This document shows positions 15,510 through 53,293 of a stretch of 64,000 nt of DNA, piece after piece (the first letter of the stretch is position 1; every line of letters starts with the position of its first letter). The DNA lies in the NCBI GenBank assembly GCA_964187785.1, contig OZ076413.1, forward strand, positions 36,146,001 to 36,210,000, given 5' to 3'. The notes beneath the pieces were generated by a model that was given only the letters and a program-made list of their open reading frames with translations, did not search any database and was not told the DNA's origin. The translations under genes were made by a program, and so were the position numbers. Source of the stretch: Amphiscolops sp. MND2022. Lineage: Eukaryota.

Positions 15510-15871
15510 GTGCAGATCAGGGGAGGGGGCGTGCACTTTCGTGATTTTTCCCGGATTTTCAAAATTGTTTGGAAAAGTCTGTGACTCATTTTTTCCGCAG
15601 AACAAGCGTTCGGTTGAAAAAAGTTTTTGGAGACCCCCCTGACTTGGGGATCCTCCTGTATATCAACTCACTACTTGGGGACCTATCATTCAATCAAGGT
15701 CCCCAATTAGTGAGTTGATATACAGGAGGATCCCCAAGTCAGGGGGGTCTCCAAAAACTTTTTTCAACCGAACGCTTGTTCTGCGGAAAAAATGAGTCAC
15801 AGACTTTTCCAAACATTTTTGAAAATCCGGGAAAAATCACGAAAGTGCACGCCCCCTCCCCTGATCTGCAC
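15510..15871. repeat. Near-perfect inverted repeat (175-bp arms, 12-bp spacer), only in unit U4
   Basis: 15510-15684 (GTGCAGATCAGGGGAGGGGGC...GGGGACCT) is the reverse complement of 15697-15871. Other units have only the right arm. Confidence 0.95.
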
Positions 15872-17348: not shown

Positions 17349-17351
17349 TTT

Positions 17352-17370
17352 TGGTGCCGCGACCCGGGAT
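17352..17370 (+). promoter_or_regulatory. Primer-binding site, tRNA-His-like
   Basis: TGGTGCCGCGACCCGGGAT 3 nt after the LTR end. Resembles the complement of the tRNA-His 3' end (TGGTGCCGTGACTCGGAT). Confidence 0.75.
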
Positions 17371-17387
17371 CAGACAACGTGATAGAA

Positions 17388-20300
17388 TGGACGGTCACGA
17401 AGAACGAAATGCTTCGCAATCAGAAGCAGTGAGCAACCTGACGACAGACAAGCTCCGACGGCTCAAAAGGTCCCGAGGTGGACATAAAAGTTTTGTTAGT
17501 AAGACAAGAGAAACACTCGAATCCCTTTTCGACAGAGAATTAACTCTTTCAATCCCTGATTTGGAAAAACTGAAGAAAAATGTACATGCACTTCGACAAT
17601 CCCAAGACAAAATAAGAGAGAAAGATAACCAAATTGAAGACGAAGTACCCGAAGACTATTTAGAATCTGAAATTGAAGAAACAAGTGAATTTCATTCAGA
17701 GCTTTCGTCTTTCATTCAAAAATGCCAAAATTTACTTGAAAAACAAGAAAATGCCTCAGATAGAAATGGAGCAGAAACAACTACAATACAAGCAAGGAAT
17801 TCTGGAAGAAATGCTGGCTCTATAAAACTGCCAAAAATTGAGCTACCTAGTTTCTCCGGAAAATATACTGAATGGACCAGTTTCTACGATCTTTTTAACG
17901 CTACTGTACATTCAAATAGCTCACTCAAACCGGCAGAAAAACTGAACTACTTGAAATCAGCACTGAAAGGCGAAGCATTCACACTGGTCAAAAATCTGAC
18001 GATCACTGATGCTAACTACGAGAATGCCAGGGACATCCTAGAGCAGCGGTACTCAAATAAGCGTTTCATTGTAAGAATCCACCTCGATGAAATCCTCAAC
18101 CAAGGTTCAATCAAGTCTGAAAATGGAATTAGTCTCAGGAAACTACTGGAAGCATTCCAGGAGAATATAGCTGCTCTAGAAGCCCAACGATGCAATTGTA
18201 GTGACTGGGGTTCAATTCTCTTGCATGTTCTTGCTGGTAAGCTTGACGTTGAAACTCGAAAACAATGAGAATTACAACAGTCAGAAACTGAGTTACAGGA
18301 ACTAACCGATTTACTTAGGTTCATTGACACGAGAGCGCGTGCACTAGAAACTATTGAGAAAAATCCAACAAAAAGTCAAGAAAAACCAAAATTTTGTGAC
18401 CAAATTTCTCCTACTGGACCCGTTTCTGACAGGAAATTTCAATCCTATGCCACCCAATTGGACAACAAGAAGTGCACTGTTCCATCGACGGATCAGTCAG
18501 TTTCCAGGACTGACGAGTTCAAGGCAATGACACCATCGCAAAGGAAAAAGTTCGTTCAGTCAAAGAATCTTTGCTTCAATTGCTTAAAAACAGGACATAT
18601 TGTCGCCAATTGCCCCAGTAAGTTTTCCTGTCGTCAATGTAACAAAAAACATGACTCTTTGTTGCATATTGACGTTGCCAATCAACAAAGACGCTCCGAA
18701 AAGGCAAATGTTTCAACTACGGACAACGCCGACACACAAACTACTTTAACAAGTACTTCTGGCAAAGCCAGTTCCAAGTCAGATCATGGAGAAACTGTCG
18801 CTCTTCTTGGCACCTGTCGACTAGCTGTAGAAGGCAAGGATGGACGAATTTTTTGGGCCCGAGCCCTCCTTGATAGTGGATCGGAAACTAATTTCGTAAC
18901 TGAACGACTTGCACAACAATTGCAGCTGACAAGACGAGGAACGAAGACAGCGATCTACAACCTGGGATCATCAGCACCCAAACCCACAAATGGAATCGTC
19001 ACTGTAACCCTCAGACCACAAAATCAACCTCTTGTGATATCGGAAATGCATGTGATTCCGAAAATAACGAACACTCTTCCCAGTCAGCCAGTAGATGTGA
19101 AGACCATGGACATCATCAAAGATCTCCATCTAGCCGATAAGTTTCTCACATCCAGGATCAATTGACATGTTGCTTGGAGTGGAATTGATGAACGAAATCA
19201 CAACAAACGATCGTTTTCAAGAGAAATCTCTAACCTTCACTCGTACAGTCTTCGGTTGGGTCATAACAGGTAGAGCGAAAGTTGACAAATTTAGAGACCA
19301 AAATTCTCATCTTGAAGTTGTTTGCAACTTTCTGCAAACAAACAGTGCACAAGATATCAGCAAGTTCTGGTGCACTGAAGAAGTGCCATCAACCAAACCA
19401 TCCCTCACCGAAGCAGAGATGGTCACAAAAAACCACTATGACGCAACAACTAAGCTGGTGAACGGACGATTTCAAGTCAAATTGCCCTTCAAACCGAATG
19501 CAACCCCACTTGGAGAAAGCAAGGCTAGTGCGTTGAGACGGTTTCTCATGCTTGAGAAACGATTGGAAGCAAACCCCAACCTTCATCAGCAATATCGAGA
19601 TTTCATTCACGAGTTCATCGATCTAGAACATCTGGAGGAGGTCCCAAAGTATGAACTCGACTTGCCCCCGCACAAATGCTTCTATTTGCCACATCATTGT
19701 GTACAGAAAGAAAGTACAACAACCAAGCTTCGAGTTGTTTTTGATGCCAGCGCGAAAACTTCCGCAAAAGTCTCCCTCAATGATGTTCTACTGGTGGGAC
19801 CAAAGATACAAGATGACCTGTTTGACCACCTCATCAGATTTCGATGCTATGCTATTGGAATCACTGGTGATTTTGCGAAGATGTATAGACAAATCGCCTT
19901 AGACAAAGAAGACAAGGATTTTCATCGACTGTTCTGGAGAGACACGCCTATTGATCCTATCAAGGTCTACCGGATGACACGGGTGACTTATGGCATCGGC
20001 TCATCAGGATATCACTCCATACGTTCACTCCAAGAAGCCGGAAAGGAATCGCCAGTGGAGGAAGTCATCAAACGAGACTTCTACGTAGATGATATGCTCT
20101 CTGGTGCTCACACCAAGGACGAAGCTACTCAACTCATCCAAGCAGTAACGAAGCAATTAGAGAAGTACGGAATGATTTTGCGGAAATTCGCCAGCAATAA
20201 TGCGCAAATCATTGAGGATCTCCAACCAAATCTTCGCGAGAATGAGAAAAATTTCACTGAAAATGACTACAGTGTCAAAACTCTTGGAATAAAGTGGCTG

Positions 20301-22662
20301 CCAAATGAAGATATCTTTGCGTTCACAATTAAGGAATCGGACAAGCTGAAGTTCACCAAACGATCGATGTTGTCGGATATCTCAACAATCTTCGATCCAC
20401 TCGGTCTACTGACACCTGTCACATTGAAGTTAAAATTGATAATTCAGTCCTGCTGGGTTCGTGGAGTTGATTGGGATGAAGAATTGCCATCAGATATTCA
20501 ATCGGAGTTCACAAAATGGCGAACAACTTTCCCTGTAATCGCAAAACTGAAGATTCCGAGGCACATCCTGAAGAGGCGTTTCGAATTGCACCTGTTCTGC
20601 GATGCTTCAGAGTTAGCATATGCTGCGTGCATCTACTTTCGTTGCCTTGACACACAAGAAATCAATCTTTTAGTTTCCAAGTCAAAAGTTGCTCCTCTGA
20701 AGCCTCTAACTGTTCCAAAATTGGAACTTTGTGCAGCATTTCTCGGATGCAACTTGTTGAAAGCTGTCCTACCAATCTTGGAGAAGATTAAATTCATACC
20801 GGAGCAAATTCATGGATGGACGGATTCTACTTTAGTCCTGAGTTGGTTCCAAGAGTTCCCTCGAAGCTGGAACACCTTCATTGCCAACCGTGTGCAAGCA
20901 ATTCAGGACATTTTGAAGCTGAAACATTGGAAACACGTCCCAAGTGAAGATAACCCAGCTGATCTGGCAACTCGAGGAGTATCAGCAGATCAATTAGACT
21001 CAGCAGCACTCTGGTGGAACGGTCCAAGATGGCTAGGATGTCTGAGCATTCCTAAACAACCGCAAACTAGCAAAACGGACACCGAGAGGAAGAAAAGCCA
21101 CATTTTGTTTTTTGAGACCATTTTCAGACACGCAGGATCATGATCGCTTCAATCTAAACGAACAGTGCACTCTGTCCAAAGCTATTCAAGTGCACTGTTA
21201 TGTTCGTTTCTTCATCGACAAGCTGAGAATGAAAAATTCTGGTCTCAAAAAATTGCTATTTTTGAAGAAGAATGGTCCAAGGTCACTCAAATTCCGGCAA
21301 AAGGTCCTTGAAGACATTGTTCGATGGGAGTAAGGACTCCATTTCGAAGAAGAGGTTGCTTGCCTACAAAATGAACGTCCACTACCCCGGAAAAGTACAT
21401 TGTTGCAGCTTCATCCTTTTATTGAGGATGGGATCCTCATGGTGGGCGGAAGAATTAGAAATAGTTGGACATCTGCCGAAACGAAGCGCTTCCCCATCCT
21501 GATTCCAAAAGAAAGCCCACTTTCAAGATTGATCATCGTAGATGTGCACCTGAAGATGCTACACGCTGGAGCAAACGCTACCCTGGCAGAAATTCGACGG
21601 AATTTTTGGATCATTCAAGCCAAAACTCTCATTCGAAAACACATCCACAGCTGCATCAAATGTTTTCGCTACAATTCCAGGATGCAAGCATCTCTCATGG
21701 GTGAACTACCAGAAGAAAGGATTACACCATCGCCACCATTCACGCACACGGGCGTCGACTTCACTGGTGCCTTCACTGTCAAAGACTTCCAAACAAAGGA
21801 AACATTCAAATGCTACATGGCACTATTCGTCTGTTTCTCAACAAAGGCCATTCATCTGGAACTTGTATCGTCACTCAGTACACCTGCTTGTACAGCTGCT
21901 CTGCGTCGTTTTGTTGCTCGTAGAGGTGCACCGGTTCGAATGTATTCCGATAATGGAACTAACTTTGTGGGAACCGCAAACGAGTTGAAGCTTCTTGAAG
22001 TTTTGTCTCAGGACCACACAAAGGAATCTTTACCAAATCTTGCAATTGATTTGGGTTCTCAATGGTTCATGATTCCGCCAGGATCACCGCACTGGGGAGG
22101 CCTCTGGGAATCAGGAATCAAGTCGGCCAAGCGTCATCTCAAGAAGACAATGGGAAACAATGTCCTGAACTATGAAGAACTTGCCACACTAATCTGCGAT
22201 ATCGAATCAATCCTCAACTCTAAGCCACTCATCGAAGCATCTGATGATCCAACGGATGACATGGTGCTCATGCCATCCATGCTTGTCAATGGCAAGGAAA
22301 TTCGATACCTTTCAGTTGCAGAGAAAACTAGTCCTTTCCAAATTCGTGAAGATGTCAACCCGCAAAAAAGATGGAGTTTTTTGAAACGATTGATATCTCT
22401 TTTCTGGAAGCGCTGGAGCTCGGAGTATCTAACCACACTTCACATAAGACGAAAGTGGAATCGCGATGGAACATCAAACCTTGAAGAAGGAGACATTGTT
22501 TTTGTAACAGACGAGACTACACCGCCACTTCAATGGCCTCTGGGACGAATTGTTGAGGCTTATCGTGGACAAGACAATATTTGTCGAGTTGTTAAAGTGA
22601 AAACGGCACGTGGAGAGTATGTAAAACCTGTGATCAAGTTGAGAAAACTTCCTTTAAGTTGA
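17388..22662 (+). pseudogene. Bel/Pao gag-pol polyprotein, disrupted by 2 stops (18266-18268, 21331-21333) and 2 frameshifts (~19145, ~21110)
   Basis: Gag LPKIELPSFSG and KLNYLKSAL; zinc knuckles CFNCLKTGH..C and CRQCNKKH; protease ALLDSGSE; RT YLPHH, KLRVVFDAS, YVDD (20082-20093); RNaseH LHLFCDAS; integrase HAG..CIKC, GVDFTG, YSDNGTNF, GLWESGIK; DUF5641-like tail. Confidence 0.97.
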
Positions 22663-22678
22663 GCAACTGGGATTGCTC

Positions 22679-22691
22679 AAGGTGGGCGGAA
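22679..22691 (+). promoter_or_regulatory. Polypurine tract
   Basis: AAGGTGGGCGGAA immediately before the TG of the 3' LTR. Confidence 0.8.
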
Positions 22692-24033
22692 TGAACTTAC
22701 CGAAAGACAAGAAGAACTTTAACAGAAGAAGAGGGTGACCACAAGACAAAAGAAGGCACTAGTACGAGGTTTTAGCACCCTGAGCCGCTTCTGCTTGCAG
22801 CTCCTCTTCAACCAGCCTTTCTAATTCAATACTCTTCTTGATCTCTGATAACGGCTCATCATCAGAGTCAACCACTCTCCACAAAGGCTTTAAGTCTGGA
22901 CGTGCCTCCAGAAGCAGTCTTCGATATTGCAAGGACGCATCCCGCCTCCAAGCCTCCTCACAAACCTTCTTCCCAAACGGCCGATATTGTCGATTCATTT
23001 CCCTGGCTTCAGGTTTGCGCCGGGCCGTCAAACGTTTACGGCGAGGATGAGCATGCCAACCATGTGGGCCTTTGTTCCGACGACCGAAAAACTTGTTACC
23101 ACGCGCCCAACCCAACTTTCTCGGCGGAATCCTCAACTTAGCATACTCTCTACCATCTTCCTCTTCCTCTTGAGTCACCCAATCCCCAAACCAATGGTCT
23201 TCCCACTTTTCCTGCTCCCTTTAGTCTGCATCAACTAGTATTCTTCTGGGAAAGGTAGTATCAGACATGTCTTACATAAAATCATCCGAAATTTAGTGAC
23301 CATATTGCAACGCAGATAGAGGATCGAAAAGAACAGGAAAGAACGCAACAACAACAGACCGAAAGTACAAAGTGCACTGTTCTATTGATTTTGGTATACA
23401 GTGACTTCTGAGAAAAAGAACCCCCTCGACGTCCCCCATAGTCTATGGAACTGGGATCCACTATTGAAGCCTAAATCTCATCGCACGCAACTGCAATTAT
23501 AAAAACTATAACAGTGCACTTAAATTAGTTGTAAACTATCCAGCTAATAAGCATTTTCCTCCATATCATGTGTTCCGCCATTTTATTTTGGTCACAAAAA
23601 AGCCCTATTTTTCACCTATTCGCTTATCTCTGCTGATTCTCTCAATTGCGTGACTTGATACATCTTCCGTATGTTTTATATGTTTTTGCTGCTATAATAT
23701 ACTGATTTTTATGTGTATTCATTGATTTTAATCTTTGGTATTGAAAAGTAACTATACAAAATTTCGTTGTACAATGCATACGTGTACACGTTCATGTTTT
23801 ATGAATGAAAAGGTAATTCTCGCCTTGTAGCATGTTTGATATTGTTGATTTTCCTTCACTAATTTATTTAACCTCAGTATTGTGTTTATATCTTTGAAAT
23901 TCAGTCATTCTCTTGTTCAACTAACTACTTTTGAAACCACCTCACAAAGAACTAAGACCTAAATTCCTAAACGTTGTCAACCCAATCCAAGTGTTGAAAC
24001 GAAGTTTTGATTTTCGAGCTTCACGAAGAATCA
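22692..24033 (+). repeat. 3' LTR (1342 bp)
   Basis: Copy of 16009-17348. The antisense ORF here (22759-23268) has a premature stop. Confidence 0.97.
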
Positions 24034-25344: not shown

Positions 25345-27260
25345 AATTATAGCAACAATATGTTTTGCTACACAAACATTTCGGTATCTTTAACCTCTTC
25401 TTTGAACAAACCATTCCCGTTTATCAAGCTGCGCGTGAGTAAAACTGCAATTTCGAGGGAAAAAGTTTCCCAAGCTGTGAGCCTCAAATTCATCGGTGCA
25501 GTCTCCTCTTCTGATAAATGCCCGCTTCTCGACCATATCTTGTTTAATGCAATCACGAATGTTGTTTTCTGCTAGTGCTAAATAGAGCGAGTCGGTGTCC
25601 ATTTCTAATTCTTCGAACTTGTTGTGGTCGCAGTACTTCTGGAAGAAATTGTAGTAAAGCTCCAGCATTCTTAGCTTAGCGTATTAAAGAATGAAGTGCC
25701 AAATGTTGGTTCCCGATGTTCTATATGTGCTTTATTAAGCTCGACTTCATAGACAGAATCATTGATGTAGCGAATATGTTTGAAAAAAGCCCTATTGATT
25801 GCACGGTCTTTTTTATGCAAGTATTTTGTCACTGTAAGCTTGCTGCGGTCCATTTTTTAGTAATCATGAGATTTGTTACTCAAGAACTTTCATAGTCTCT
25901 GCAATCACTGTGGACTTCTTGTTTCGATCACCCAGTTCTCGGGCCTCGACAATTGATTTTACAAATCCTTTGAACCACTTCTGTGGAAAGTATTCAAATT
26001 TTTGAATTTTTGTACACTCAAGACCCAGGTTCAGATAGAAGTTGAAAAGCGGTGTAATTAAGCTTCCGTTTTCCAAGTGAAAGCTGGAAATCAACATTTT
26101 GCTAGGATGTTGTAGCGAGCCATGATTCTCAGCATACATGTTCATGTACTCACTGATATCATCTCTACTGACGAAACATTTCTTGAAAATTGGGGGTAAC
26201 TGTTTGCAGTCATTTTGAAGACGCTTGGGTACTGATAAATCCCATTGAACATACCCAAAGATATATTATTTTTGATCTGTTACATGATTTGCTGTTCCGA
26301 TAATGGTTTGCGAAATGGGAAGTTTGTCCTCGATCTCTCTCTGATGTCCTTGTCTTCTTTAACTTGCTTCCACCAGCAGCATTCCCAAATTTCGATCACT
26401 TTGAATCCTTTCCCAATGATAGCTATATTTTTTGCTCCGAGTCATAGTTTTTACGCTTTTCCCAACATTTTCGAATTTCAGAAGTTACTCTCTTTCTGCT
26501 GACAACCACAACCATGATGAAAACGACAAATAGCTTCGAACACAGTGTCACAATATCCACAGATTTCGCCGACGCTGAAGTTTTTGATTCTGTATTGTTT
26601 TCCGGCAGTGTAGATACTTTCAATTGTACATTCAGGTCTTGTGTTCTGGAAATGATCCATCACGATATTCTAAAATCGTTGTCGTCGATTTTGAACGGGG
26701 TTTAAATTTTTTCAATTCAGCATCCATAACCCATCTAGTGTACAAACCAGTGGGCATTTCCTGACACATGGAAAACAGATAGAGCTGACTGGCGTCTACT
26801 ATTATGGTTCTAAACAAATTATCTGTAAACCGAATTTTAGTTTCACCTACAACTGCTTCACGTGTAAAAAGAATGGAAGGACCTCCCACCGTATCAGACT
26901 TGATTTTCTCCAAAAGATCTCTATCGTTTTTAGTGAAAAGGTAAAACTTTGCGGTTGTTGAACAATGTAGATGAATGTTTGCTAATTTTGGCAGAGTGTA
27001 CCCAAGTTTCAGCATGTCTATTTCGCGCTCATGATAAAACGCAAGGCTTAAAATGTCGGAACAACATCCTGGTTGTTGTACCGCTCGACGTTCTCTTCGA
27101 ATGTACTCATATTTTCTGTACTCCAGATCTTTTTCAAATAACTATAGTTTTCTGTTCCTGTTGGAGGAGCAGTGAAAATTTTCGTTTCTTTCAAGGCATC
27201 TTGTTTGGTGTAGCCACTGCATTACGATACATATGCCGCAAAAGTGGAATTTATCATCAA
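25345..27260 (-). pseudogene. Polinton/Maverick-type family-B DNA polymerase, C-terminal ~640 codons, degenerate
   Basis: YNNQDVVPT, DMLKLGYTLPKLAN, VGGPSILF, DASQLY..SMCQEMPTG (motif A), a Cys/His-containing insert (TVFEA..FHHGCGCQ), MLISSFHLENG, ETMKVLE, EMDTDSLYLAL, LCSKTYCCY. Confidence 0.92.
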
Positions 27261-37132: not shown

Positions 37133-37937
37133 GCCGCGGTAATCTTGTAGCTAATTTCCTCGCCCCTAATTAAGCCTAATTGAAGAAGCATAGACTAATT
37201 TTTTTGTTGGTTCATTGGGCGGACTTATTATCTAAGGATTCTAGCAAGTATTCCTGTAATTTTTCTTCAGTCTTACAATTCCGTCGAGAAAAACGACAAT
37301 ACAATAAACAAAATATCGTTGCGGTTTCTACTGATTCTATATCCTCGACAGTGATTTCGTCCTCAAATGACTGCAATTTTTTGGCAATCAATGAAATAAT
37401 TAGGAAACGCAAAAAGAATGTAGGAAAACGAAAATTTGTCCTTCTTATCGACAATCTAGTGAATTATCTGGGGTGAGTTGTTATTTGTGTCAATATAACT
37501 GTTTTTGAGCCACCGGCAAAAAGTAACTGGAAAAAAGTGATAATTTTCTAGAAAACTGAGCAACTGTTTGTCAAGTCTGTCCCACTCTAATAACACAGCA
37601 GGCCACCGTTGAAAACGCAAATAGAAGTTTTTTCAATGAAGCTTCAGTTGAGTTTGACGGGCATTTGAAAGGCTCGATGGATACCGGCCCGCGCCACCGG
37701 GGTGGAGCTCTCACCCGAACAAGTGGCGTCAACTCCCAGCCTAACTAGTGTGCATTTGAAAGCTTATGTAAAGGGCGTTCAGGAGCGGAAATACTGAGCT
37801 GCTGCTTTTTTTCGTGGAGAAATGAAGCTTTGAAAAAAAATTGCCTAATTTTTGTCAATTTTTTGACTCCTCGGTGAACTGTGGAGGTTATGAAGCCGGT
37901 GCGTTTTAACGACTTATCTTGACATAATTTTTTTTAG

Positions 37938-38787
37938 GTTGAACGGATTTGGAAACTTGGGCGAATGGAGCAAAAAGGCTGGTCACGATATTAACTTCCT
38001 ATCGCTATCCGGGGTTCTTTCAAGACTAGGTAGACCAGGTGAAGCTCCACAACCCCCGATAAACTTATTAGCTGACTTTGCTGGGGGAAGTATGTTATGT
38101 GCCCTTGGCATCATGCTCGCTCTATTCGAACGCTCCAAATCTGGAAAAGGTCAAGTCGTGGACTGTAATATGTTATCTGGATCCTCATATCTGGCTTCTT
38201 TTCTATGGAACTCCGTGAGGACCATGCCAGAAATCGTTGATCACCCTAGAGGTCAAAACCTATTGGACGGGGGTGCCCCTTTTTACGGCACTTACAAAAC
38301 CAGCGACCAAATGTTTATGGCTGTTGGAGCTCTGGAACCAAAGTTTTTTCATAACTTGATGACTGTTCTGAATCTGTCAGAAGCACATCCGGTTACAGAA
38401 CAATTTGATAAATCAAAATGGTCTCAAATGAGACAAGATATAGCCCAATGTTTCCTATCAAAAACGCAGAAAGAGTGGGTCAGTCTATTTCAAACAGTTG
38501 ACGCATGCGTTTCTCCCGTGCTTGAGATGAAGGAAGCGCCGGAATTGGAGCAGAATGTAGAAAATGTCAACTTTGTAAGAAAGGATGACGGCAGGATTTA
38601 TCCCAACGTGGCCCCCAAACTATCAAGGTCACCTGGTCGAATTGATCTGCAATCTGTGGGTCAGTTGTTGCCAGTCGGCAGAGACACTCGAGACGTTTTG
38701 CTTCAAAATGGATTTTCACATGGCGAAATAGACCAACTAGTTTCAGATGGAGTTGTGTTCTGCCTTGACGAGAAATCAAAATTATGA
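37938..38787 (+). CDS. AMACR: Alpha-methylacyl-CoA racemase (CaiB/BaiF CoA-transferase family III), terminal exon of ~282 aa; 5' exons not found
   Basis: GHDINFLSLSGVLS, PINLLADFAGGSM, GKGQVVDCNM, RGQNLLDGGAPFYGTYKTSD, FMAVGALEPKF, DACVSPVL, C-terminal SKL (PTS1). Acceptor TTTTTTTTAG at 37928-37937. Confidence 0.95.
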
Positions 38788-40690: not shown

Positions 40691-40703
40691 AGTATGAAAA
40701 AAA

Positions 40704-40776
40704 TGGCAAGTCCCGGATTCGAACCGGGGACCTCAGGGATGAAATTCAGGCTATCTATCCACTGTGTCACGAGACC
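40704..40776 (-). ncRNA. tRNA-like Pol III head (SINE-like), copy A
   Basis: A box TGACACAGTGG, B box GGTTCGAATCC, perfect T-stem, followed by a T run. Other stems do not pair. Confidence 0.6.
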
Positions 40777-41403
40777 TTTTCAACCAGTACATACAGGTTC
40801 TTTATGTAACGAGCATTCTTTCACTGTACATTCGCTAATCATTTTGTGAATCCTCATTAAAATTTTGCCTGAAAGGTGTACGTATGAATTTTTAAGAAAT
40901 TGACAAAGTTAAAAGCACAACTTCATTTAAAATTTCGCAACGTCCCGGAAAAGTTTAGCTCTAGAATAATCTAGAGAATTATCCAGGTAGTTCTACAGCT
41001 CGTCGATATTGCTTGTCATTGTTTTCAATGTCAATTCAAAGGAGTTATTTACTTTATCTGGGGGTTGTTGTCGACCAGTTTACATATCAAATCTCAGGTG
41101 GCGAAAAGTTACAAAATGGCTACCTTAAGGGTCTTTTGTCATTTATCCAATCGATTCCAAGATCACAAAGTAATTTTTTATGAATAATGTGGCTTTCAAA
41201 TACTTGACAATTGGGAGAGCAAATTGCAAGGTTGTCTTCACCCAGATAATTAGTCACACTCAGCAGCTTGGTTAATTTGTCTTTCTATTGGACTTTGCTG
41301 GCTGTTTCTCCTCTTTTATTTTGAAAGAAAATGAATCTGTTTTGCTAAACGTTCATCAACCTCAGTGCACAGTATACTTATCCATTTGTCCTTTTGAAAA
41401 GTT

Positions 41404-41745
41404 ATGGATTATCTGAGATCACATTGGGGTTTGGACCAAACTCGTGTCCGTTTTCACGAATATGGCGAACCAGCCGCACCAATACCACCACCTACGAGGA
41501 AACTTCTGACAGAAAATCATCAAGGCGGAAGTTTCGAAAACAATGTCAGTGGGCGATGAAACTAGAAGATCCGGCAAAAATCGAATTTGTAACAGGGCTT
41601 TCGTTATACCTGAAGATGGGGAGGGAAAAGCGGGACTAGACCGTGCTCAAAGTTGACAAATAACCGTGAATTTCATTCTTTTTGCTTATTCGGCCTGAGT
41701 GTTTTTTAAATGTCAGCCCCACTCTTCTTGTCATCAACTTCGTGA
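41404..41745 (+). pseudogene. uS5/RPS2-like copy A, internally deleted
   Basis: AEVSKTMSVGDETRRSGKNRICNRAFVI. A 2-nt frameshift, plus a ~450-bp deletion between AAAGTT microhomologies that removes the middle and the intron. Confidence 0.7.
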
Positions 41746-42249
41746 ACCCGAGACATTTTTGCTGTCAACGTTTAAAACTCTCGGTCTTTGGCGTTGTCGA
41801 TGACATCCCATCCCATTTTGGAACGAAATAAAATTTTAAAAATTTCAAATTGTGCTCCCTGGAAATTTGGAAGCTATTACCGGCTTCATCTTAGCATTTC
41901 CGGAATCGCTGGATCAAGGATTGTATTCTGAAGCATCATATACGATCTAAATGCTAAAACCCATCTAGGGAAGAGATCGATCGAGTGTTCGTCGTTTAAT
42001 GATCAAAATCTATTCTATACTTTTTTTGTGAAACGTCTATGCTATAAGACATCGCGCCGACCAACAAAATGAGAGCAAAACAAGTCTGAATTCACAAAGT
42101 TATTAACGCTCTTTCAACTTGTTGAAAGTTTACTCGCTAGGTACTTGAGAACAATACAAAAAACGTCTTTTCGCTCTTTCGATACGGTTTACAAATTCAT
42201 TGTCACTGAACCATTTGTCAAAATCTATCAAATACTCCAAGTCTTCTAT

Positions 42250-44263
42250 GGCGTTTGCCTCGTCTTCCGTTAGTGTTTGGGCAGTCACTTGGGTCTACTT
42301 ATCTTCTTCGAGTTGACCATATGATACCTCTGTCGCCACGTCATCGACGATTGGGTTTCTTGGAGGGCTCTGTTCATCCAGAATTTCGTTCAAGTTTGTT
42401 TCGCCTTCTTCCAGCTCGGAGTCGCTGTACTCTCTTTGAAGCATTCCCGAGTCAGGGGGCGACCATGCTTCCATTAATTCTTGAGTGAGATTGACTCGTC
42501 CTCACTTAGTTGCAATGGTGATGAGAGACGGCGTTCACCGGTATCGTAGCCTCATCTGGAAAAACTTTTTTGGGGATCGATACCGTTTAGTTCATCCCAA
42601 GTGGGACTTGTTGGCATTTCTTCGTTTTCAAATCCCCATTCTGGTTCATCCAAAATGTCTTGCTCAACACGAACATCCCTGCAGTGATCATGGGGTAAAG
42701 TTGAGATGCCGTCTTCTAATACATAGCGCTTATCATCAAGAGAGCTGAGAGACATCTTGTTTGTCTTGATAGTTTTCAACTGATGTCGGGTTGATCCGAT
42801 ACGCGTGTTTAAGGTCTTGAAAGATTCACCCGTCTGCAGAATTGTTTTGAAAAGTTCATGTGTTAGGTTCTGTTGTGGTAGGGTTTCCATGTTCAATACC
42901 AACAAAGTAGAAGCCGTTTGGTTGGGGTAGTTCAGTGACGCGTGTTGATTCGTTTTCCTGCAGGCAGCCGGCAAGTGGTTGAAGGATTGATGAGATCAAA
43001 ATAGATAACCACGGGGCAAACCATCTAGCACCCAAGTTTTTGAATTTCAGCCTGTTGTTTTCTGGTTGAGGCATTTTCACAACGGCGGGCTCGTGATGCA
43101 GGCATTTAGCAGGCGTTTCTGCAGAGTACTCGTTGAAGCAACGTTGTTGTTCCTTCAATCAAGTTAACGAGTCTTGAAACGCCTAGTATCAAAAAGTAGT
43201 GATACTCCTTTTCATCGTCCACTAACAATGAATCAACATTGAAGGTGTTGTCCTCACTGGAAACTCTCTGTGGAACTAGTTCGTTTTCAGTACAGCTGGA
43301 AACGTTAACGTTGCACTTGTTCAATTTCTCAAATCGTAACATCTGTCCAAAGCCCATGGGCATTTCATAATCACCCAGTGCTTGATGAGCTAATTGATTT
43401 CGTGGGAAATAAGTTTCACTGTTCGTTCGTCTGCAAATGAAATCCCGGTTAGCCACATAGAGTAGAGGTCTATGTTTCAGCCTGGAGGTGCCACGCGCCT
43501 GTAAAGCAGTACAAAAAGCAATTTTGATCTTGTCGGTTGCGAATGTTAAGCAGTAAATGCGGTGCCTCCAGTTCTGGTGGAGTAGGAAGTAGGAGCATTC
43601 CCGAATTGGATTGAAGGTGGCAAATTTAATGTCTAGCTCAATTATTTTGTCCAGTATCCCCCTACTTTCAGAAGCAGTGAACGTAAACGAAGCGTTGATC
43701 ATTTTGTCCACTGTTGTCAGGAAATGATTTTGCGGCAATGTATTGCCGTAGACAGGTACCAAGTGTGATCGAAGAAAAAGTTCAGTTCCTTTTTTTGTCG
43801 GCTTTGTAAGCTATGTTCTCGAAACGAGATGTAATTATTGACTCGTGCGGTTTACATTTTCGCTAACCAATTGATCAATTTGTGGTTTGGCAGTCATGAA
43901 CTGCATCAAGTCATTTTCTCCTGATCCAGTAATTTTGAATACTTTACGAGCCCCATTGGATGCGGATGAGATTGGCTTCGTTTTCTCGAACGAATCGATA
44001 GGTGGTGGTAGTTCACGTTTCTGTAATAAGTGTTTGAAGAATTTTTGGGCGTCATCGAATCCTACTCCACAATAGACGCACATGTTTTCCAGCTGGGTTC
44101 CGTGTTTCTCGCGAAAGTGTTGATCAGATAGGGCAAATAGCTCCATCTTCTGGCAAACATGGCCTTCCATGGGGAGATTAGCAGTTATTTTGTAAACATT
44201 TCGTCGATGTTGGCGAAGATTGTTTTTGTTTGGAAATGTTTTCTTATACTCAAAAATCTCCAA
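42250..44263 (-). pseudogene. Second Polinton-like PolB family, left arm: N-terminal zinc-finger/pre-exonuclease part joined to the extreme C-terminus and acidic tail
   Basis: CVYCGVGF, RFEKLNKCNVNV, HYFLILGVSRL, HHEPAVVKMP..LKFKN, GIEHGNP; then KTNKMSLSSLDDKRYVLEDGISTLPH. Confidence 0.8.
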
Positions 44264-44539
44264 CTTTGTTGAGAAGCAGTTACCCTTACAGACAGAATTT
44301 CTTGAAAATCACTAGTTCCCACATGCAATATTTGATTGAAATTACTATATCAGATGAATTTGTTGCCGAAACAATATCTTGCTGTAATAAAAGTGAAAAT
44401 TTTCACAAAAAGTACAGTCAAATTCACTCTGAAAAAGTATTTTCAATCGAATATTGCATGTGGGAATTATTGATTTTCAAGAAGTTTTGTCTGTAAGGGT
44501 AACTGCTTCTCAACAAAGTTGGAGATTTTTAATTTTTAG

Positions 44540-46600
44540 CTTTGAGAATTCCCGTTTTCTCGATTGAGCTATCGGGGTTATTCGGGTTCGATGACAAATG
44601 CAAGCTGACCCACCCCTGTCAGACAATCGGTGGTCAATCTCGTTTCAACTGGTCCAAAAATACAAGCTGACGCGCCCCTCTCGAGCCATTTCATAAAAGC
44701 ACTTGAGAAAATTGTTCACGAAATGTATAAAAGAAAGCAAAATCATCGTTACTTTCGTGATGCACTACCAGAAAGACTTCAGGAAGCACAATTTGTTGGA
44801 TCTGCGAAGGTCAGTTTGGGCTGACTAGTGACATAGAAGACGACAAAGTTATTGGCCATTGTCACTATTCGGGAAAGTTTCTCGGTTTCGCACACCCAGA
44901 ATTTGATATCAACAGGAAAACTACGAACTTCATTCCAGTCATAGCTCACAATTCGTCAAACTATGACTTGCACCATGTTTGCATGTACATCCACAAGTTC
45001 AAACCAGGTTGCAAACTTGATGTGATGCCGTCAACAGATGAAAAATACATAACATTGTTAGTCGGAATGCCTGTTAGAGCATACCAAGATAAAAATGGAA
45101 TGACAAAAACAGTATTCGAGCAACTGTGATTTTTAGACTCGATGGGTGCTTCGCTAGAAAAATTAGTTTCATACTTGCCCGAAGACAAGTTTGAAATTCT
45201 TGACAAAGTCATCCTGATCATTCTACAGAAGAGCGAAACCTCTTACACCGAAAGGGGCATTATCCGTATTCCGACTTTGATAACTTTGAAAAGCTCCAAG
45301 AAGAGGAGCTACCACCGAGAGAAAAATGGAGATTTGCTGCGCAATGGAGAAGTTATGATTACTGATGATCAATGGCAACATGCGGAGAACGTATACCAGC
45401 AGATCCAATGCGCAAACGTGGGTGATAAACACTATTTGTACCTTTTAACTGACACTACTCTTGGCATGCGTGGCTGAAGATTTTCGTAGCCTCTGTTATA
45501 AGACCTTTGGCTTGGATAGTGCGCCGTATTTTACTTGCTCCCACTTATCTGGCGATGGTTTCTTGAAAATATGCCGGGCAGACATTGAACTTTTAACTGA
45601 TCGCTCCCACCTGGAAATGGTTGAAATATGATTAGAGATGGGGTATCTCCAGTGTTTGGCAAGATACTTTTCAAAACAAAGAACAGATACCTAGATGACC
45701 ACAACAAAAGAGAATGACACTTATGGGGTTTTACTAGACGCAAACCACTTGTGTGGCGGTGTCATGGAAAACCTACCATTGCCGTTAAATAGTTTCGAAA
45801 CAATTCAAACATTACTCCAACTGACGACTCTGTAGAATGATATATTCTAGATGTTAACCTTCGCTACCACGATAAGCTTCGAATTGGACATGAAGATTTT
45901 CCACTAGCTCCAACAAAAGAGAATATACTACAAAAGTCTGGGAGAAAGTCAACAAGAGTTGTTGAAGATGGGCGAAACTCGATTTTTTAGTGAAGGTAAA
46001 TAGTTTGATTCAGTCATCGTCTGTCAAGGAAAAGATCCATCACGTGGAACAAACCTACAATAGTTGGGGTTGCTGTACTAGACTTGGCAAAATTCGTCAT
46101 GTTTGATTTCCATTACAATATGATGAAGCTTCTCAATTGCGTTGTGTTGTACTCGGACACAGACTCTTTGCTAAACGAAGTGAAACACATAGAATTCGAT
46201 CGGAAGCTTGCCAAAAACGCCTAGTTGCGTCATTATTTTAACTTGTCAAATTATCCCACAAACATAAACTCTACAACGCAGAATTAATGGAGGCATTGTC
46301 GCCCCCTGACCCGAGCATGCTTCAAAGAGAGTACAGCGATTCCGAGCTGGAAGAAGGCGGAATAAACTTGAACGAAATTGTGGATGGTCAGAGCCCTCCA
46401 AGAAACCCATTCGAGAGTCCATGACGAGGCGACAGAAGTATTAGATGGTCAACTCGATGGAAAAGATAAATCAGACCCAAATGACTGCTCAAACACTAAC
46501 GGACCACAAGGCAAACGCCATAGAAGCGTCATAGAATTTGACAGTTGGTTCAGTGACGATGAATTTGTAAACCGAATCAAAAGAGCCAAAAGAAGACGGA
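44540..46600 (+). pseudogene. Second Polinton-like PolB family, right arm: exonuclease and polymerase core plus acidic tail
   Basis: HCHYSGKFLGFAH, IPVIAHNSSNYDLH, FLDS..SLEKLV, LDANHLCGGVM..LP (motif A), YSDTDSL (motif C, ~46148-46170). Confidence 0.85.
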
Positions 46601-47447
46601 TGGAAATTGTCAGCGATAGCGAAAAAAACGCATGTTCTTCCATATGCTAATAGTAGACTGTGTGCTATGATTGTTTTTAGTATTGTTCTCAAGTACCTGG
46701 CGAGTAAACTTTCAAGTAGTTAAAAAGCGTTAGTAATTTTGTGAATTCAGAGTTGTTTTGCTCTCCATTTATTGGTCGGCTCGTGGTCTTAAAGCATAGA
46801 TGTTTCACAAAGATAGTATAGTATTAGTTTTCAGTTTTTGAACGACGATCTATCTTTTCCCCCAGATGGGTTTTAGCATTTGGATCGTATATGTTGCTTC
46901 AAAAGACTCTCCTTGATCCATCGTTTGCAGAAGGGCTGGGTAAAAGCCTGTACTCGCTTCCAAATTTTCAGGGAGCACTCTTTGAAATTTTGAGAGTGAT
47001 TTCAAAAAATGTTTGAATCTATGAAAATTTTTGTTTTACGAGTTGGGTTTTAGCATTAGAATTTTCATGTGACTTCAAAAGACATTCCGCAATGCATCGT
47101 TTGCGGAAATGCTGGGTAAAAGCTCGTACAAGCTACCAAATTTTCATGGAGCACACTTCAAGATTTTGAGAAGTATTTCAAAAAGTTTTTTGAACCTTGC
47201 AAGTTTTGTTATTTTCCGACACGGGTTTTAGCATTTGAGTCGTTCATGTTCCTTCAAAAGGCACTCCTTGATCCGTCGTTTGCGGGAATGCTAGATTGAA
47301 GCCCGAACTAGTTTCCAAATTTTCAGAGAGCACACTTTGAAATTTTTGGAAATTTAATTTCGTTCCATCATGGGATGGGGTATCATCAACAACGTAAAAG
47401 ACCGAGTGTTTCGAACGTTGACAGCACCGCAAAAAAACGTCTCGGAT

Positions 47448-48249
47448 TTACGCCGTTGTTGACGAGAAGAGTGGGCTGATATTTAAAAGAACATTCAGGC
47501 CGAATGAGCAAAAAGAATCAAACTCACGGTTGTTTGTCAACTTTTTTCCTAGGGCGTTGAACGCAGCCAAAGCAAAGGTTGTCGTGTTGTTCGAATGAGC
47601 TGAAATGGTTTTTTTTCAAAGTAGGTTGAAACCGTTCTGAATAAGATTTCTATTTTCAGAAATACAACTTTTGCACAATCAACTGTGATCATTACAATCA
47701 ACCATTACTGAAAACATTCATCAGTTATCGAAAAAGCTTGACTTACTAGACTCGAGCATAACAATGCAGTCTTTTATTCCAATGAAACGAAGAATAAGTG
47801 TCACTATCGGAGAACACCCCATCGTACAGTTCCCTTTAGAGCAGGACTCTAGTTTAACTTCTTTCCCATCATAATTCCCAATAACTGGATTCGCTAATGT
47901 GTGTTTCTCGTTTTCCTCCGGACCGAACTTTCCTAGATTAAAATCAAACATCTGACTTTGCTTGTGCTGTAGCTTTCTCAATTGAAACTTTCTGAGCCCG
48001 GTCTATTTTAATGCCGAGTTCCGCTTTTCTCTTCCTATCTGCAGCTATCACGAAAGTGTTACGAACTCGATTTTCGCCGGATCTTCTAGTTTAATCGCCC
48101 AGTGACATTGTTTTCGAAACTTCCGCCTTGATCGTGTTTTCTGTCTGAAGTTTTCTCGTAGGTGGTGGTATTATTGTGGCTGGTTCACCATATTCGTGAA
48201 AACTGACCCTAGTTTGGTCCAAACCCCAATGTGATCTCAGATAATCCAT
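47448..48249 (-). pseudogene. uS5/RPS2-like copy B (intron 47600-47746)
   Basis: Same sequence as copy C with a GAA>TAA stop near 48092 and a +1 T frameshift near 47950. GTAAGT donor and TTTCAG acceptor retained. Confidence 0.75.
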
Positions 48250-49135
48250 AACTTTTGAAAAGGACAAATGGATAAGTATACTGTGCACTGAGCTTGATGA
48301 ACGTTGAGCAATACAGATCTATTTTCTTTCAAACTAAAAGAAAAGGAGAAACGGCCAGCGAATTCCAATAGAAAGACAAATTAACCAAGCTGCTGAGTGT
48401 GACTAATTATCTGGGTAAAGACAATCTTGCAGTTTGCCCTTCCAATTTATTCTGAAGTATTTGAAAGCCACATTATCCAAAGAAAAATATTTTTCTGAGC
48501 TTGGAATCGATTTGATAAATGACAAAAGACCCTCAAGGTAGCAATCTTGGAATTTTTCGCAATACAGATTTATTTTCTTTCAAACTCAAAGAAAAGGAGA
48601 AACAGCCAGCGAAGTCCAATAGAAAGACAAATTAACCAAGCTGCAGAGTGTGACTAATTATCTGGGTGAAGACAATCTTGCAATTTGCTCTTCCACTTTA
48701 TTCTCAAGTATTTGAAAGCCACTTTATCCAAAGAAAAATATTTTTCTGAGCTTGGAATCGATTGGATAAATGACAAAAGACCCTCAAGGTAGCCATTTTT
48801 GAACTTTTCGCTACCTGAGAAATCTTATGATATTATGTAAACTGGTCGACAAAATAAATAACTCCTTTGTATTGACAGTGAAAATAATGACAAGCAATAT
48901 TTACGAGCTGTAAAAATACCTGGATAATTCTTTAGAACATTCTAGAACTATACTATTCCGGAACGTTGCGAAATTTTACATGAAGTTGCTCTTTTACCTT
49001 TGTCAATTTCTTAAAAATTCATACGTACACCTTCCAGGCAAAATTTTAATGACGATGAGGATTCACAAAATTTTTAGCGAATATACAGTGCATGAATGAT
49101 CGTTATAAAAAGAACCTGCATGTACTGGGTGAAAT

Positions 49136-49208
49136 GGTCTCGTGGCACAGTGGATAGATAGCCTGATTTTCATCTCTAAGGTCCCCGGTTCGAATCCGGG
49201 ACATGCCA
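49136..49208 (+). ncRNA. tRNA-like Pol III head, copy B
   Basis: TGGCACAGTGG, GGTTCGAATCC, then a T run. Confidence 0.6.
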
Positions 49209-50464
49209 ATTTTTTTTAAAGATTCAACCCCGTATAACATCCAACTACTTGTATCGTTGGTGTTCTACTTTTTGATCGTTGTTTTGACCAAAACTTCTTG
49301 AATTTCGACTATACGCTATTGATTTAAAGATGTCTGGTTCGAAGGATAATTTGTGGCTCACTGGCGAGTAAACTTTCAAGTAGTTAAAAAGCGTTAGTAA
49401 TTTTGTGAATTCAGAGTTGTTTTGCTCTCCATTTATTGGTCGGCTCGTGGTCTTAAAGCATAGATGTTTCACAAAGATAGTATAGTATTAGATTTCAGTT
49501 TTTGAACGACGATCTATCTTTTCCCCCAGATGGGTTTCAGCATTTGGATCGTATATGATGCTTCAAAAGACACTCCTTGATCCATCGTTTGCAGAAGGGC
49601 TGGGTAAAAGCCTGTACTCGCTTCCAAATTTTCAGGGAGCACTCTTTGAAATTTTGAGAGTGATTTCAAAAAATGTTTGAATCTATGAAAATTTTTGTTT
49701 TACGAGTTGTGTTTTAGCATTAGAATATTTATGTGACTTCAAAAGACATTCCGCAATACATCGTTTGCGGAAATGCTGGGTAAAAGCTCGTACAAGCTAC
49801 CAAATTTTCACGGAGCTCATTTTGGAATTCTGAAAATCATTCCAAAAAGTTTTTTGAACCTGGCATTTGCCGAGACGGGTTTTAGCATTTGGATCATTTA
49901 TGGTGCTTCAAAGGACACTCCTTGATCCAGCGATTCCATAAATGCTAGGGTGAAGCCCGTACTAGCTTCCAAATTTCCAGGGAGCACACTCTGAGTTTTT
50001 GAGAATAATTTCGAAAAGATTTGGATCCTGAAAAATTGTTTTTTTTTACGAGTTGGGTTTAAGCATTTGGATTGTATTTTACTTCAAATAACATTCCGCA
50101 ATCCATTGTTTGCAGAAATACTGGGGTAAAAGCCCGTACAAGGTCCCCAGTTTTCATGGAGCACACTTCGAGATTTTGAGAAGTATTTCAAAAAGTTTTC
50201 TGAACCTTGCAAGTTTTGTCATTTTCCGACACGGGTTTTAGCATTTGAGTCGTTTATGTTCCTTCAAAAGGCACTCCTTGATCCGTCGTTTGCGGGAATG
50301 CTAGATTGAAGTCCGAACTAGTTTCCAAATTTTCAGAGAGCACACTTTGAAATTTTTGGAAATTTAATTTCGTTCCATCATGGGATGGGGTATCATCAAC
50401 ACCGTAAAAGACCGAGTGTTTCGAACGTTGACAGCACCGCAAAAAACCGTCAAACGTCTCGGAT

Positions 50465-51264
50465 TTACGCCGTTGATGACGAGAAGAGTGGGCTGATATT
50501 TAAAAGAACATTCAGGCCGAATAAGCAAAAAGAATCAAACTCACGGTTATTTGTCAACTTTTTTCCTAGGGCGTTGAACGCAGCCAAAGCAAAGGTTGTC
50601 GTGTTGTTCGAATGAGCTGAAATTGTTTTTTGTCAAAGTAGGTTGAAACCGTTCTGAATAAGATTTCTGTTTTCAGAAATACAACTTTTGCACAATCAAC
50701 TGTGATCATTACAATCAACCATTACTGAAAACATTCATCAGTTATCGAAAAAGCTTGACTTACTAGACTCGAGCATAACAATGCAGTCTTTTATTCCAAT
50801 GAAACGAATAATAAGTGTCACTATCGGAGAACATCCCAGTCCAGTTCCCTTTAGAGCATGACTCAGTTTAACGTCTTTCCCATCATACTTCCCAATAACT
50901 GGATTCGCTAATGTGTGTTTCTCGTTTGCCTCCGGACCGAAATTTCCTAGATTAAAATCAACATCCGACTTTGCTTGTGCTGTAGCTTTCTCAATTGAAA
51001 CTTTCTGAGCACGATCCATTTTAATGCCGAGTCCCGCTTTTCTCTTCCTATCTGCAGCTATCACGAAAGTCTGTTACGAACTCGATTTTCGCCGGATCTT
51101 CTAGTTTCATCGCCCAGTGACATTGTTTTCGAAACTTCCGCCTTGATCGTGTTTTCTGTCTGAAGTTTTCTCGTAGGTGGTGGTATTATTGTGACTGGTT
51201 CACCATATTCGTGAAAACTGACCCTAGTTTGGTCCAAACCCCAATGTGATCTCAGATAATCCAT
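50465..51264 (-). pseudogene. RPS2: Highly divergent ribosomal protein uS5 (RPS2-like) gene, copy C; 2 recognisable exons, intron 50617-50763, single 1-nt frameshift at ~51070
   Basis: Spliced and frame-corrected: AEVSKTMSLGDETRRSG..RAFVIAAD..GLGIK..SIEKATAQAK..G.FG..HTLANPVIGK..LSHALKGTG..P..GIKDC..THSNNTTTFALAAFNAL. This is collinear with RPS2 EVLKIM..TRAG..KAFV..D..GLGVK..AK..HTV..V.G..GTG..P..GIDDC..FAKATFDAI. Not the canonical housekeeping copy. Confidence 0.78.
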
Positions 51265-52150
51265 AACTTTTGAAAAGGACAAATGGATAAGTATACTGTG
51301 CACTGAGCTTGATGAACGTTGAGCAATACAGATCTATTTTCTTTCAAACTAAAAGAAAAGGAGAAACGGCCAGCGAAGTCCAATAGAAAGACAAATTAAC
51401 CAAGCTGCAGAGTGTGACTAATTATCTGGGTGAAGACAATCTTGCAATTTGCTCTTCCACTTTATTCTCAAGTATTTGAAAGCCACATTATCCAAAGAAA
51501 AATATTTTTCTGAGCTTGGAATCGATTGGATAAATGACAAAAGACCCTCAAGGTAGCAATCTTGGAATTTTTCGCAATACAGATTTATTTTCTTTCAAAC
51601 TCAAAGAAAAGGAGAAACAGCCAGCGAAGTCCAATAGAAAGACAAATTAACCAAGCTGCAGAGTGTGACTAATTATCTGGGTGAAGACAATCTTGCAATT
51701 TGCTCTTCCACTTTATTCTCAAGTATTTGAAAGCCACATTATCCAAAGAAAAATATTTTTCTGAGCTTGGAATCGATTGGATAAATGACAAAAGACCCTC
51801 AAGGTAGCCATTTTTGAACTTTTCGCTACCTGAGAAATCTTATGATATTATGTAAACTGGTCGACAAAATAAATAACTCCTTTGTATTGACAGTGAAAAT
51901 AAAGACAAGCAATATTGACGAGCTGTAAAAATACCTGGATAATTCTTTAGAACATTCTAGAACTATACTATTCCGGGACGTTGCGAAATTTTACATGAAG
52001 TTGCTCTTTTACCTTTGTCAATTTCTTAAAAATTCATACGTACACCTTCCAGGCAAAATTTTAATGACGATGAGGATTCACAAAATGATTAGCGAATATA
52101 CAGTGCATGAATGATCGTTATAAAAAGAACCTGCATGTACTGGGTGAAAT

Positions 52151-52223
52151 GGTCTCGTGGCACAGTGGATAGATAGCCTGATTTTCATCCCTGAGGTCCC
52201 CGGTTCGAATCCGGGACTTGCCA
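52151..52223 (+). ncRNA. tRNA-like Pol III head, copy C (73 nt, then a T9 run as terminator)
   Basis: GGTCTCGTGGCACAGTGG...CCCGGTTCGAATCCGGGACTTGCCA. Canonical tRNA length and A/B boxes, but only the T-stem pairs. Confidence 0.6.
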
Positions 52224-52444
52224 ATTTTTTTTTGTAAAGTTTCAACCCCGTTTAACATCCAACTTCTTGTATCGTTGGTGTTCTACTTTTTGATCGTTGT
52301 TTTGACCAAAACTTCTTGAATTTCGACTATACGCTATTGATTCAAAGATGCCTGGTTCGAAGGATAATTTGTGGCTCACTTATTTAGCGCACTCCAAGGT
52401 TTCAAGCTTTCATAGTAGCGTGAATTCATTTTTAGTTTTATGAG

Positions 52445-53293
52445 ATGAGTAGCTTCCAAGAAGACGAAGTAGTTAAGCACATAGTAGCCATTCTGTTGAT
52501 TAATTCTCAGATGGGACTGACAGACAATGATCTTCTACACGAATACGAAGTTCTAGTTGGTCACAAATTGTTATTTCCAGTCTTCAACTACTCGAACCTC
52601 AAGGATTTTTTGAGCAGGCACCCGGAACGAGTAGAAATTTACAATTCAAAGTTCGGCAACCGATACAAAGCTGTTGAATATGATGATGAATCAGTTCAAA
52701 GAAACTTCCATCGACACGATGAACTCGCCAGTGCTTTCAAAGGCATGAAAGTTTGTTCTGAGAAACACTGCAAATCAGACCATATTGTGCCTTACGATGT
52801 CAGAAAGAATCTGTTGGACATTATCGAGAAGTATCCAACTGGTATCGACCTCGAAATTTTTCTTCTTGAGTTTTGCGAACTTTGTGGGTACGAGTTACAA
52901 CCTCATAATTTCAATTTCACGTCATATCAACAAATGTTCTTACATCTGTCTGACATTTTTTCTCTCCATCCAACAGAAAAGTCAATCCTTTTGTACCCGA
53001 CGTCACAAGTTGTGAAACCAGGTGTTGGATCTGGACAAACTTTGTCTTGCACTGATCAAATGGATTTGGCGAAGCAAAGAGTCGTTGAACTTATGAGAGT
53101 TCATGGTTCATGTATGAAGCTAGGTGATCTACAAACAGAATATTTTAGCTACTTTGGTACTTATTTGAATGTGGAAAATGTAGGGTTTGCTTCCGTTTTA
53201 GACTTCCTTTTTCATTGTCAAGATTGTTTCGACATGAAAGACTCTGGTGATTCTAGAGACGAGATTGTTATGCAGCTGAAACCAATGTATTGA
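52445..53293 (+). CDS. Single-exon 282-aa protein with three LOTUS/OST-HTH domains and no Tudor domain seen
   Basis: Three repeats of helix-G-LxxL..EY...G..L....F..L..FL..: GLTDNDLLHEYEVLVGHKL..FNYSNLKDFLSRHP; GIDLEIFLLEFCELCGYEL..FNFTSYQQMFLHLSD; MKLGDLQTEYFSYFGTYL..GFASVLDFLFHCQD. Confidence 0.8.
   Translation: MSSFQEDEVVKHIVAILLINSQMGLTDNDLLHEYEVLVGHKLLFPVFNYSNLKDFLSRHPERVEIYNSKFGNRYKAVEYDDESVQRNFHRHDELASAFKGMKVCSEKHCKSDHIVPYDVRKNLLDIIEKYPTGIDLEIFLLEFCELCGYELQPHNFNFTSYQQMFLHLSDIFSLHPTEKSILLYPTSQVVKPGVGSGQTLSCTDQMDLAKQRVVELMRVHGSCMKLGDLQTEYFSYFGTYLNVENVGFASVLDFLFHCQDCFDMKDSGDSRDEIVMQLKPMY

Follow-up and report, generated by a model that had tools for sequence, protein, structure and literature searches.

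We found that the uS5-like gene present in this window (the whole 64,000-nt stretch of DNA that was analyzed) is resident cargo of Polinton/Maverick elements, and most of the elements checked carry it at one end. The window itself holds dead copies only, which are decayed Polinton/Maverick gene remnants and do not represent a host paralog. The original prediction had recognized a relative of uS5/RPS2 and proposed a specialized, possibly germline, ribosomal paralog of the host. The homology stood, whereas the paralog had to be given up, because the gene is Polinton cargo and two ordinary RPS2 genes of the host were found at other loci. Taken together, the Polinton context, the diversity of the family, the purifying selection and the unlike alleles on near-identical backbones are, in our judgment, close to certain. 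An assembly artefact was ruled out by distinct TSDs at different sites.

The homology of the gene was evaluated using the window ORF at 50741–51073 (minus strand). A Pfam scan of this ORF returned Ribosomal_S5_C above the cut-off (E 1.1e-6) and Ribosomal_S5 below it (E 0.0018), and its best PDB sequence matches were eukaryotic RPS2 proteins (E 9e-8). Both the S5 and the S5_C domains are on record for seven of ten close database relatives. The search of the genome for canonical RPS2 returned two ordinary host genes, L032 (C5:874 kb) and L034 (C5:66.37 Mb), which are 89% identical in DNA, have one coding intron apiece and are about 80% identical to RPS2 of other animals. The window ORF showed 30% identity to these two loci, in agreement with the roughly 30% identity to animal RPS2 that had been predicted.

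Three copies of the gene were delimited in the window. Copy C, on the minus strand, starts with an ATG at 51264. Its first exon (50764–51264) contains a frameshift near 51072, where two minus-strand ORFs had been predicted to join, as well as further small indels; it is followed by a phase-1 GT-AG intron of 147 nt (50617–50763; GTAAGT...TTTCAG) and by a last exon (50465–50616) that corresponds to the uS5 C-terminal helix and whose frame continues beyond the stop of the sister copies. The coordinates predicted for this phase-1 intron were exactly right, and the intron is in phase 1 in eight of eight sister copies elsewhere, in which the first exon is 3n+1 long, the intron begins with GT and ends with AG, and the last exon is conserved. 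Copy B (47600–48249, minus strand) consists of a first exon (47747–48249), which carries several frameshifts and one premature stop, and an intron (47600–47746). Copy A (41404–41650, plus strand) retains the 5' part, having lost the intron and most of the C-domain to an internal deletion of about 460 bp. The copies are broken at different sites, as had been anticipated. The last exon of copies B and C has no stop in 29 codons, compared with 20–25 codons in the sister copies.

The count of three holds for the window, whereas the family comprises at least 150 matches and copies B and C belong to one tandem duplication: the stretch at 49870–52380, the duplicate that created copy C, is 95% identical to 46861–49362, host flank included. 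Upstream of copy B, an AGTAGT element terminus (49244–49249, minus strand) is followed by sequence resembling the TIR tip of complete elements, and the mutated duplicate of this terminus lies upstream of copy C (52262–52267, minus strand), with flanking host DNA common to B. Arrays of a 176-bp satellite are located between copy B and the polB remnant (46868–47346) and downstream of copy C (49528–50358). One decayed pPolB gene is convergent with copy A (42167–44682, minus strand), has an internal deletion and is 82–87% identical to stretches of element L074/L091; another is convergent with copy B (44699–46836, plus strand). Together they form a head-to-head mirror remnant facing copies A and B. 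These window polB fragments, which gave no Pfam match, were assigned by DNA similarity. The remnant retains one intact AGTAGT tip.

Among the window copies themselves, dN/dS was near 1 (1.03 for C versus B and 1.34 for A versus C, based on few changes), yet open-frame copies exist elsewhere under selection, and against such open-frame sisters the window copies gave values of 0.41–0.57. The window copies therefore had a selected history first and decayed neutrally later.

Several further features of the window and of related loci were recorded. A donor-like GTGAG motif stands right behind the stop codon, at about 50540 in the window and in sister loci L002–L028, and a conserved motif of about 70 nt lies further down; both are common to all three intron-bearing subfamilies and are possibly a 3' UTR intron or an RNA element. 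Mirror-type elements, with uS5 in each inverted arm and polB between, were seen at 40700–49250 of the window and at L062/L099 (C1:26.075–26.090 Mb). L062 is 14.3 kb long and has an exact TSD and an arm 99.6% identical over at least 1.5 kb; further pairs of uS5 in opposite orientation lie at C6:69.35 Mb. About 170 bp past the element end, an ORF at 52436–53293 (plus strand) contains an OST-HTH/LOTUS domain (Pfam E 7.7e-13); LOTUS proteins are often germline small-RNA factors. A stretch near the element tip looked tRNA-like by eye (52107–52249, 49092–49231 and 40704–40822); ARAGORN found no tRNA in it, and in many other Polintons 87% matches to it lie close to the far end. The window also contains an LTR retrotransposon at 16009–24033, with 1.34-kb direct repeats that are 99% identical and gag/pol ORFs, which is presumably of the BEL/Pao type judging from its motifs. 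There are 3.4-kb tandem duplications at 4001–15510 and 25876–27141, with other decayed ORF fragments that appear polB-like by eye, and a host ORF at 37894–38787 (plus strand) carries a motif that we take to be like that of alpha-methylacyl-CoA racemase.

To describe the carriers, we read out elements at sister loci, which have in common a sharp upstream boundary beginning with AGTAGT. AGTAGT TIRs and an exact 6-bp TSD were found in 9 of 11 elements, 14.3–19.4 kb in length; for the remaining two, one end lay outside the DNA read. Pfam scans of the carrier elements detected DNA_pol_B_2 in one of the polB ORFs scanned (E 3e-10), rve in two of two ORFs (E 3e-10 and 6e-11), the packaging ATPase Pox_A32 (E 6e-5) and, about at the cut-off, Peptidase_C5 (E 5e-4 and 1e-4). 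A 440-aa ORF (L093:5263–6582) had no match in Pfam and no sequence match in PDB; its model was poor (pLDDT 42.9), and major capsid proteins predominated among its best Foldseek matches (E to 1e-10, TM about 0.3). Based on this model, the ORF is a candidate, likely though not firm, for the double jelly-roll major capsid protein. Its only close homologs that bear a name came from the acoel Convolutriloba macropyga (56–57%), which hints at the lineage of the host, and IMG/VR, searched in a way that detects close relatives only, contained none. A syntenic ORF of about 290 aa, considered with regard to the minor capsid protein, had no Pfam match.

Within these elements, the uS5-like gene has the left terminal repeat on one side and the gene for the DNA polymerase on the other. 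Of 80 ten-kb loci chosen by a uS5 or S5_C match, 79 have a uS5 match, and 71 of these 79 have a convergent pPolB downstream of it; the other eight showed no polB inside the stretch read. In the reverse test, 40 loci were taken from the best 150 polB matches (2177 candidates), none of them near a then-known uS5 match. The results showed a convergent uS5 beside polB in 32 of the 40, a sample that covers polB types close to the query only. In at least five of the eight polB loci without uS5, unrelated ORFs occupy its slot: L194 and L205 (421 and 323 aa) and L195, L196 and L200 (115–122 aa). Pfam returned nothing for four such ORFs. Replacement of uS5 by other ORFs is what is expected of an accessory-gene slot.

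The family is large. With the window ORF as query, 92 matches were obtained among 150 genome candidates scored, and with Pfam S5_C all 150 scored candidates, of 318 in total, matched; both are minimum counts, and the two ordinary RPS2 genes of the host are among them. Many of the uS5-like matches lie on different chromosomes and score identically. At L134 (C12:37.27 Mb), uS5 C-domain fragments form a tandem array with a 748-bp period. When 119 loci were read, 111 had a uS5 match and 88 had a long open frame, defined as at least 115 of 154 profile positions covered in one frame. Open-frame relatives in 88 of the 111 loci fit the suggestion that an intact parent may exist. The 88 open frames fell into 53 subfamilies at 90% identity. 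The alleles are about 27–29% identical to one another, and their median identity to host RPS2 is 33% (range 24–43%).

Selection was assessed in 58 subfamily pairs with at least 55% identity. In 25 pairs dS was finite, with a median dN/dS of 0.15 and a maximum of 0.45; in the other 33 dS was saturated and pN was 0.15–0.32. Within subfamilies, pN/pS was 0.46. The uS5-like subfamilies are thus under purifying selection, and the long coding evolution that had been proposed is supported both by the median between subfamilies and by the comparison of the window copies with their open-frame sisters. The diversity of the alleles may stem from age.

An AF2 model of one natural intronless allele reached a pLDDT of 86.6, and its top Foldseek matches in PDB were eukaryotic uS5 proteins (E 1e-15, rmsd about 1.5 Å). 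The protein is predicted from this model to keep the whole two-domain uS5 fold. In BFVD, no match to the uS5 fold reached E 0.001, and a search of IMG/VR that detects close relatives only returned none for one uS5 allele. The pI exceeds 9 in 50 of 53 subfamilies, and the subfamily of the window is nearly neutral, with a net charge of +1 for L070. Two basic residues are kept within the dsRBD-like N-domain, the K of EVLKI in about 90% and the R of TRF in about 80%, and core glycines and alanines are also kept across the alleles. Conservation of the C-domain equals that of the N-domain, and the beta-hairpin loop varies among alleles. The RG tail and FxxxFG motif of uS5 have been tied to PRMT3 and PDCD2 (PMC10216425). 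In a scan of the open frames only, with a possible upstream exon in subfamilies that have no Met before the domain, the FxxxFG chaperone motif was found in 0 of 53 subfamilies and there was no RG-rich tail, at most one RG being present. For host PDCD2 itself, the genome gave one weak match below the cut-off (E 0.002).

The relationship between the uS5-like genes and their backbones was examined in 64 loci at which both genes were readable. Here polB formed 15 clusters (95%) and uS5 formed 26 (60%), and the identities of the two genes showed scant correlation (Spearman 0.11). Where polB was at least 97% identical, which was the case in 126 pairs, uS5 had a median identity of 29%; the 81% discordance among these pairs is inflated, unlike uS5 loci having been picked. 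In the polB-picked subset at the same polB threshold, uS5 identity was below 40% in 10 of 19 pairs and above 90% in 3. Elements of one backbone group share a terminal tip of about 74 bp, which is followed by a unique uS5 segment of 2–2.5 kb; sharing resumes at an 83-bp satellite and continues from there at 94–99% identity. These patterns suggest that uS5 is a cassette exchangeable between elements.

Re-copying of a tip during strand-displacement replication is drawn from adenovirus biology. In our elements, a crossover inside the satellite array would swap the uS5 segment, and the terminal tip would be re-copied from the other element end during such replication. The two steps together would explain the shared tip, the unique uS5 and the shared backbone, and we regard this route as rather likely. 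Mosaicism in these viruses is known (10.64898/2026.10.13.758929), and Maverick cargo is modular (10.1101/2022.07.12.499685).

The origin of the gene was addressed with a tree of 85 rows, some of them unnamed rows whose domain labels were inferred. The 53 element subfamilies and 12 database relatives formed one clade (97/91), support that may come partly from long-branch attraction; the sister-group support for its position among eukaryotic uS5 was 66/64. Bacterial-type uS5 rows formed a separate clade (100/98) in this tree, which contained no MRPS5 row. Several subfamilies retain the archaeo-eukaryotic segment W-x-P...GRLVK...EPEI before the S5 domain. The uS5-like gene is thus supported as a derivative of the eukaryotic cytosolic type, and a single capture from cytosolic eukaryotic RPS2 appears quite probable from these sequences. 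MRPS5 orthology was ruled out by the best matches and the tree. Among the database relatives, P0143 is at best 78% identical to a broken copy in this genome and 58–61% at full length, and P0146 reaches 49% at best. These two relatives without a close match here indicate that the family likely extends to other genomes. A scan of prokaryote genomes returned eukaryote-like and archaeal uS5 loci.

The intron gives a mixed signal on this origin. Counting from the last helix, the window intron coincides by codon and phase with the only coding intron of host RPS2; counting from the upstream D-C motif, it is one codon off. Between subfamilies the intron is less conserved than the exons. An intron at the host position occurs in 3 of 53 subfamilies, which are nested, and 50 are without it, so inheritance needs several losses, and otherwise the intron was gained in parallel. 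The original prediction had taken the intron as an argument against a retrocopy. A recent retrocopy of host RPS2 is indeed ruled out, the gene being too diverged, intron-bearing and under selection, whereas the argument from the intron itself is weakened by its restriction to three subfamilies.

We lean slightly towards a reading in which a Polinton lineage fixed a captured uS5 as a near-universal accessory with dozens of swappable alleles, which acts on host translation either as a decoy for defense factors that recognize uS5 or as an alternative 40S component. As for the function itself, the likeliest reading of the sequences, which we put forward tentatively, is a putative decoy mimic of host uS5 rather than a ribosomal subunit. 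The protein would keep the uS5 shape and a basic surface and, while viral genes are being expressed, would occupy host factors that recognize uS5 or uS5-RNA sites; its variable surface would reflect an arms race with the host. A kept shape, a changing surface and a swappable accessory slot best fit a decoy in a host conflict, and the 33% identity to the host protein, the missing FxxxFG motif and RG tail and the variable beta-hairpin loop argue against incorporation into the ribosome. Previous studies identified uS5 as a target of other viruses (PMC8887129) and linked its chaperone Zfrp8/PDCD2 to transposon RNA (PMC4726551). The basic charge and the two kept basic residues fit plain RNA binding equally well. 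A viral uS5 that replaces host uS5 in the 40S subunit, giving specialized ribosomes that favor element mRNAs or relax start-codon choice, seems unlikely to us. It would suit the predicted retention of the two-domain fold and the basic pI of 50 of the 53 subfamilies; moreover, uS5 forms part of the lining of the mRNA entry channel and influences the fidelity of initiation (PMC10216425), and phage-encoded ribosomal proteins are known (PMC6375957). However, alleles that diverge this far from one another and from the host are ill-suited to one fixed site, that of uS5 being bounded by uS2, uS3, uS4, uS8, eS21 and rRNA, and the chaperone-binding motif is missing within the frames read.

Elements integrated in the germline are threatened mainly by silencing, which counts in favor of a role apart from ribosome biology, in which the dsRBD-like N-domain would have been adapted to suppress RNAi/piRNA silencing through RNA binding. 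The dsRNA-binding-like domain of uS5 (PMC10216425) and the position of the conserved basic residues within it are consistent with such a suppressor, but the equal conservation of the C-domain and the nearly neutral charge of the window's subfamily speak against it, and we consider it as doubtful as ribosome substitution. A role inside the element, in which the protein would either bind nucleic acid as a basic core component of the particle or exclude competing Polintons in an allele-specific way, appears a little less probable again: many alleles that co-exist on the same backbone would fit frequency-dependent selection among elements, and a candidate capsid-like gene is present, but unrelated ORFs take the slot in some elements, so the gene is not an essential structural one, and uS5 lies apart from the morphogenesis genes and in the opposite orientation. 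A fast-evolving, possibly germline, RPS2 paralog of the host is highly improbable. The spliceosomal intron at the position of the host RPS2 intron, and the 8 of 79 loci without polB in the stretch read, which make a domesticated copy conceivable, would be in its favor; it is largely refuted by the location of the gene inside TIR/TSD-bounded Polintons, by identical copies on many chromosomes and by the neutral evolution of the window copies.

To our knowledge, viruses are usually described as being without ribosomal proteins. The exceptions known to us are mostly phage genes, namely bS21, bL9, bL12 and HPF, plus one antisense retroviral capture, the eukaryotic-virus entry eS30/fau in FBR murine sarcoma virus, which acts as antisense RNA; as in the elements described here, a virus-like genome carries a ribosomal protein gene (Mizuno et al., PMC6375957). 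Unlike eS30/fau, the element uS5 is sense-oriented, has been under long protein-level purifying selection and is far from the host copy. K3L diverges rapidly. This poxvirus pseudosubstrate of eIF2-alpha, which mimics part of the host translation machinery (PMC8887129), offers an analogy only: there is no homology, and the target is known for K3L and only proposed for the element uS5. The carriers resemble animal Polintons/adintoviruses in their pPolB, integrase, protease, packaging ATPase, capsid-like gene, TIRs and 6-bp TSD (PMC8502044, PMC4028283), and uS5 differs from the accessory genes described in PMC8502044, which are membrane-active or oncogene-like. Nematode Maverick cargo (WASP proteases and KRMA kinases) is likewise host-type, adjoins the left TIR, sometimes has introns, shows low conservation and recombines modularly between elements (10.1101/2022.07.12.499685); here, in contrast, the cargo derives from a core ribosomal protein and comprises 53 subfamilies within a single genome. 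The main text of that paper does not contain the word 'ribosomal', the stem 'ribosom' has 0 occurrences in the Polinton overviews PMC8502044 and PMC11071308, and in the open full-text literature, excluding subscription journals and supplements, we found no earlier report of Polintons with uS5 or any other ribosomal protein. Ribosomal proteins encoded by viruses and cargo genes of Mavericks were known already, and a Polinton cassette of uS5 that is both conserved and highly diverse is apparently new.

Our analysis shows that an animal virus-like element kept a uS5 derivative under purifying selection until synonymous sites were saturated, in at least 53 subfamilies. For genome analysis, this means that ribosomal-protein marker genes in such genomes may come alongside hundreds of element-borne homologs. 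The cassette boundaries provide a direct view of accessory-gene exchange among Polintons, and the series of alleles amounts to a natural experiment that can tell which surfaces of uS5 are important outside the ribosome. If the reading of a fixed uS5 accessory that acts on host translation is true, a eukaryotic DNA virus would possess a functional ribosomal-protein homolog of its own, and an antiviral pathway centered on uS5, so far unknown, would be indicated.
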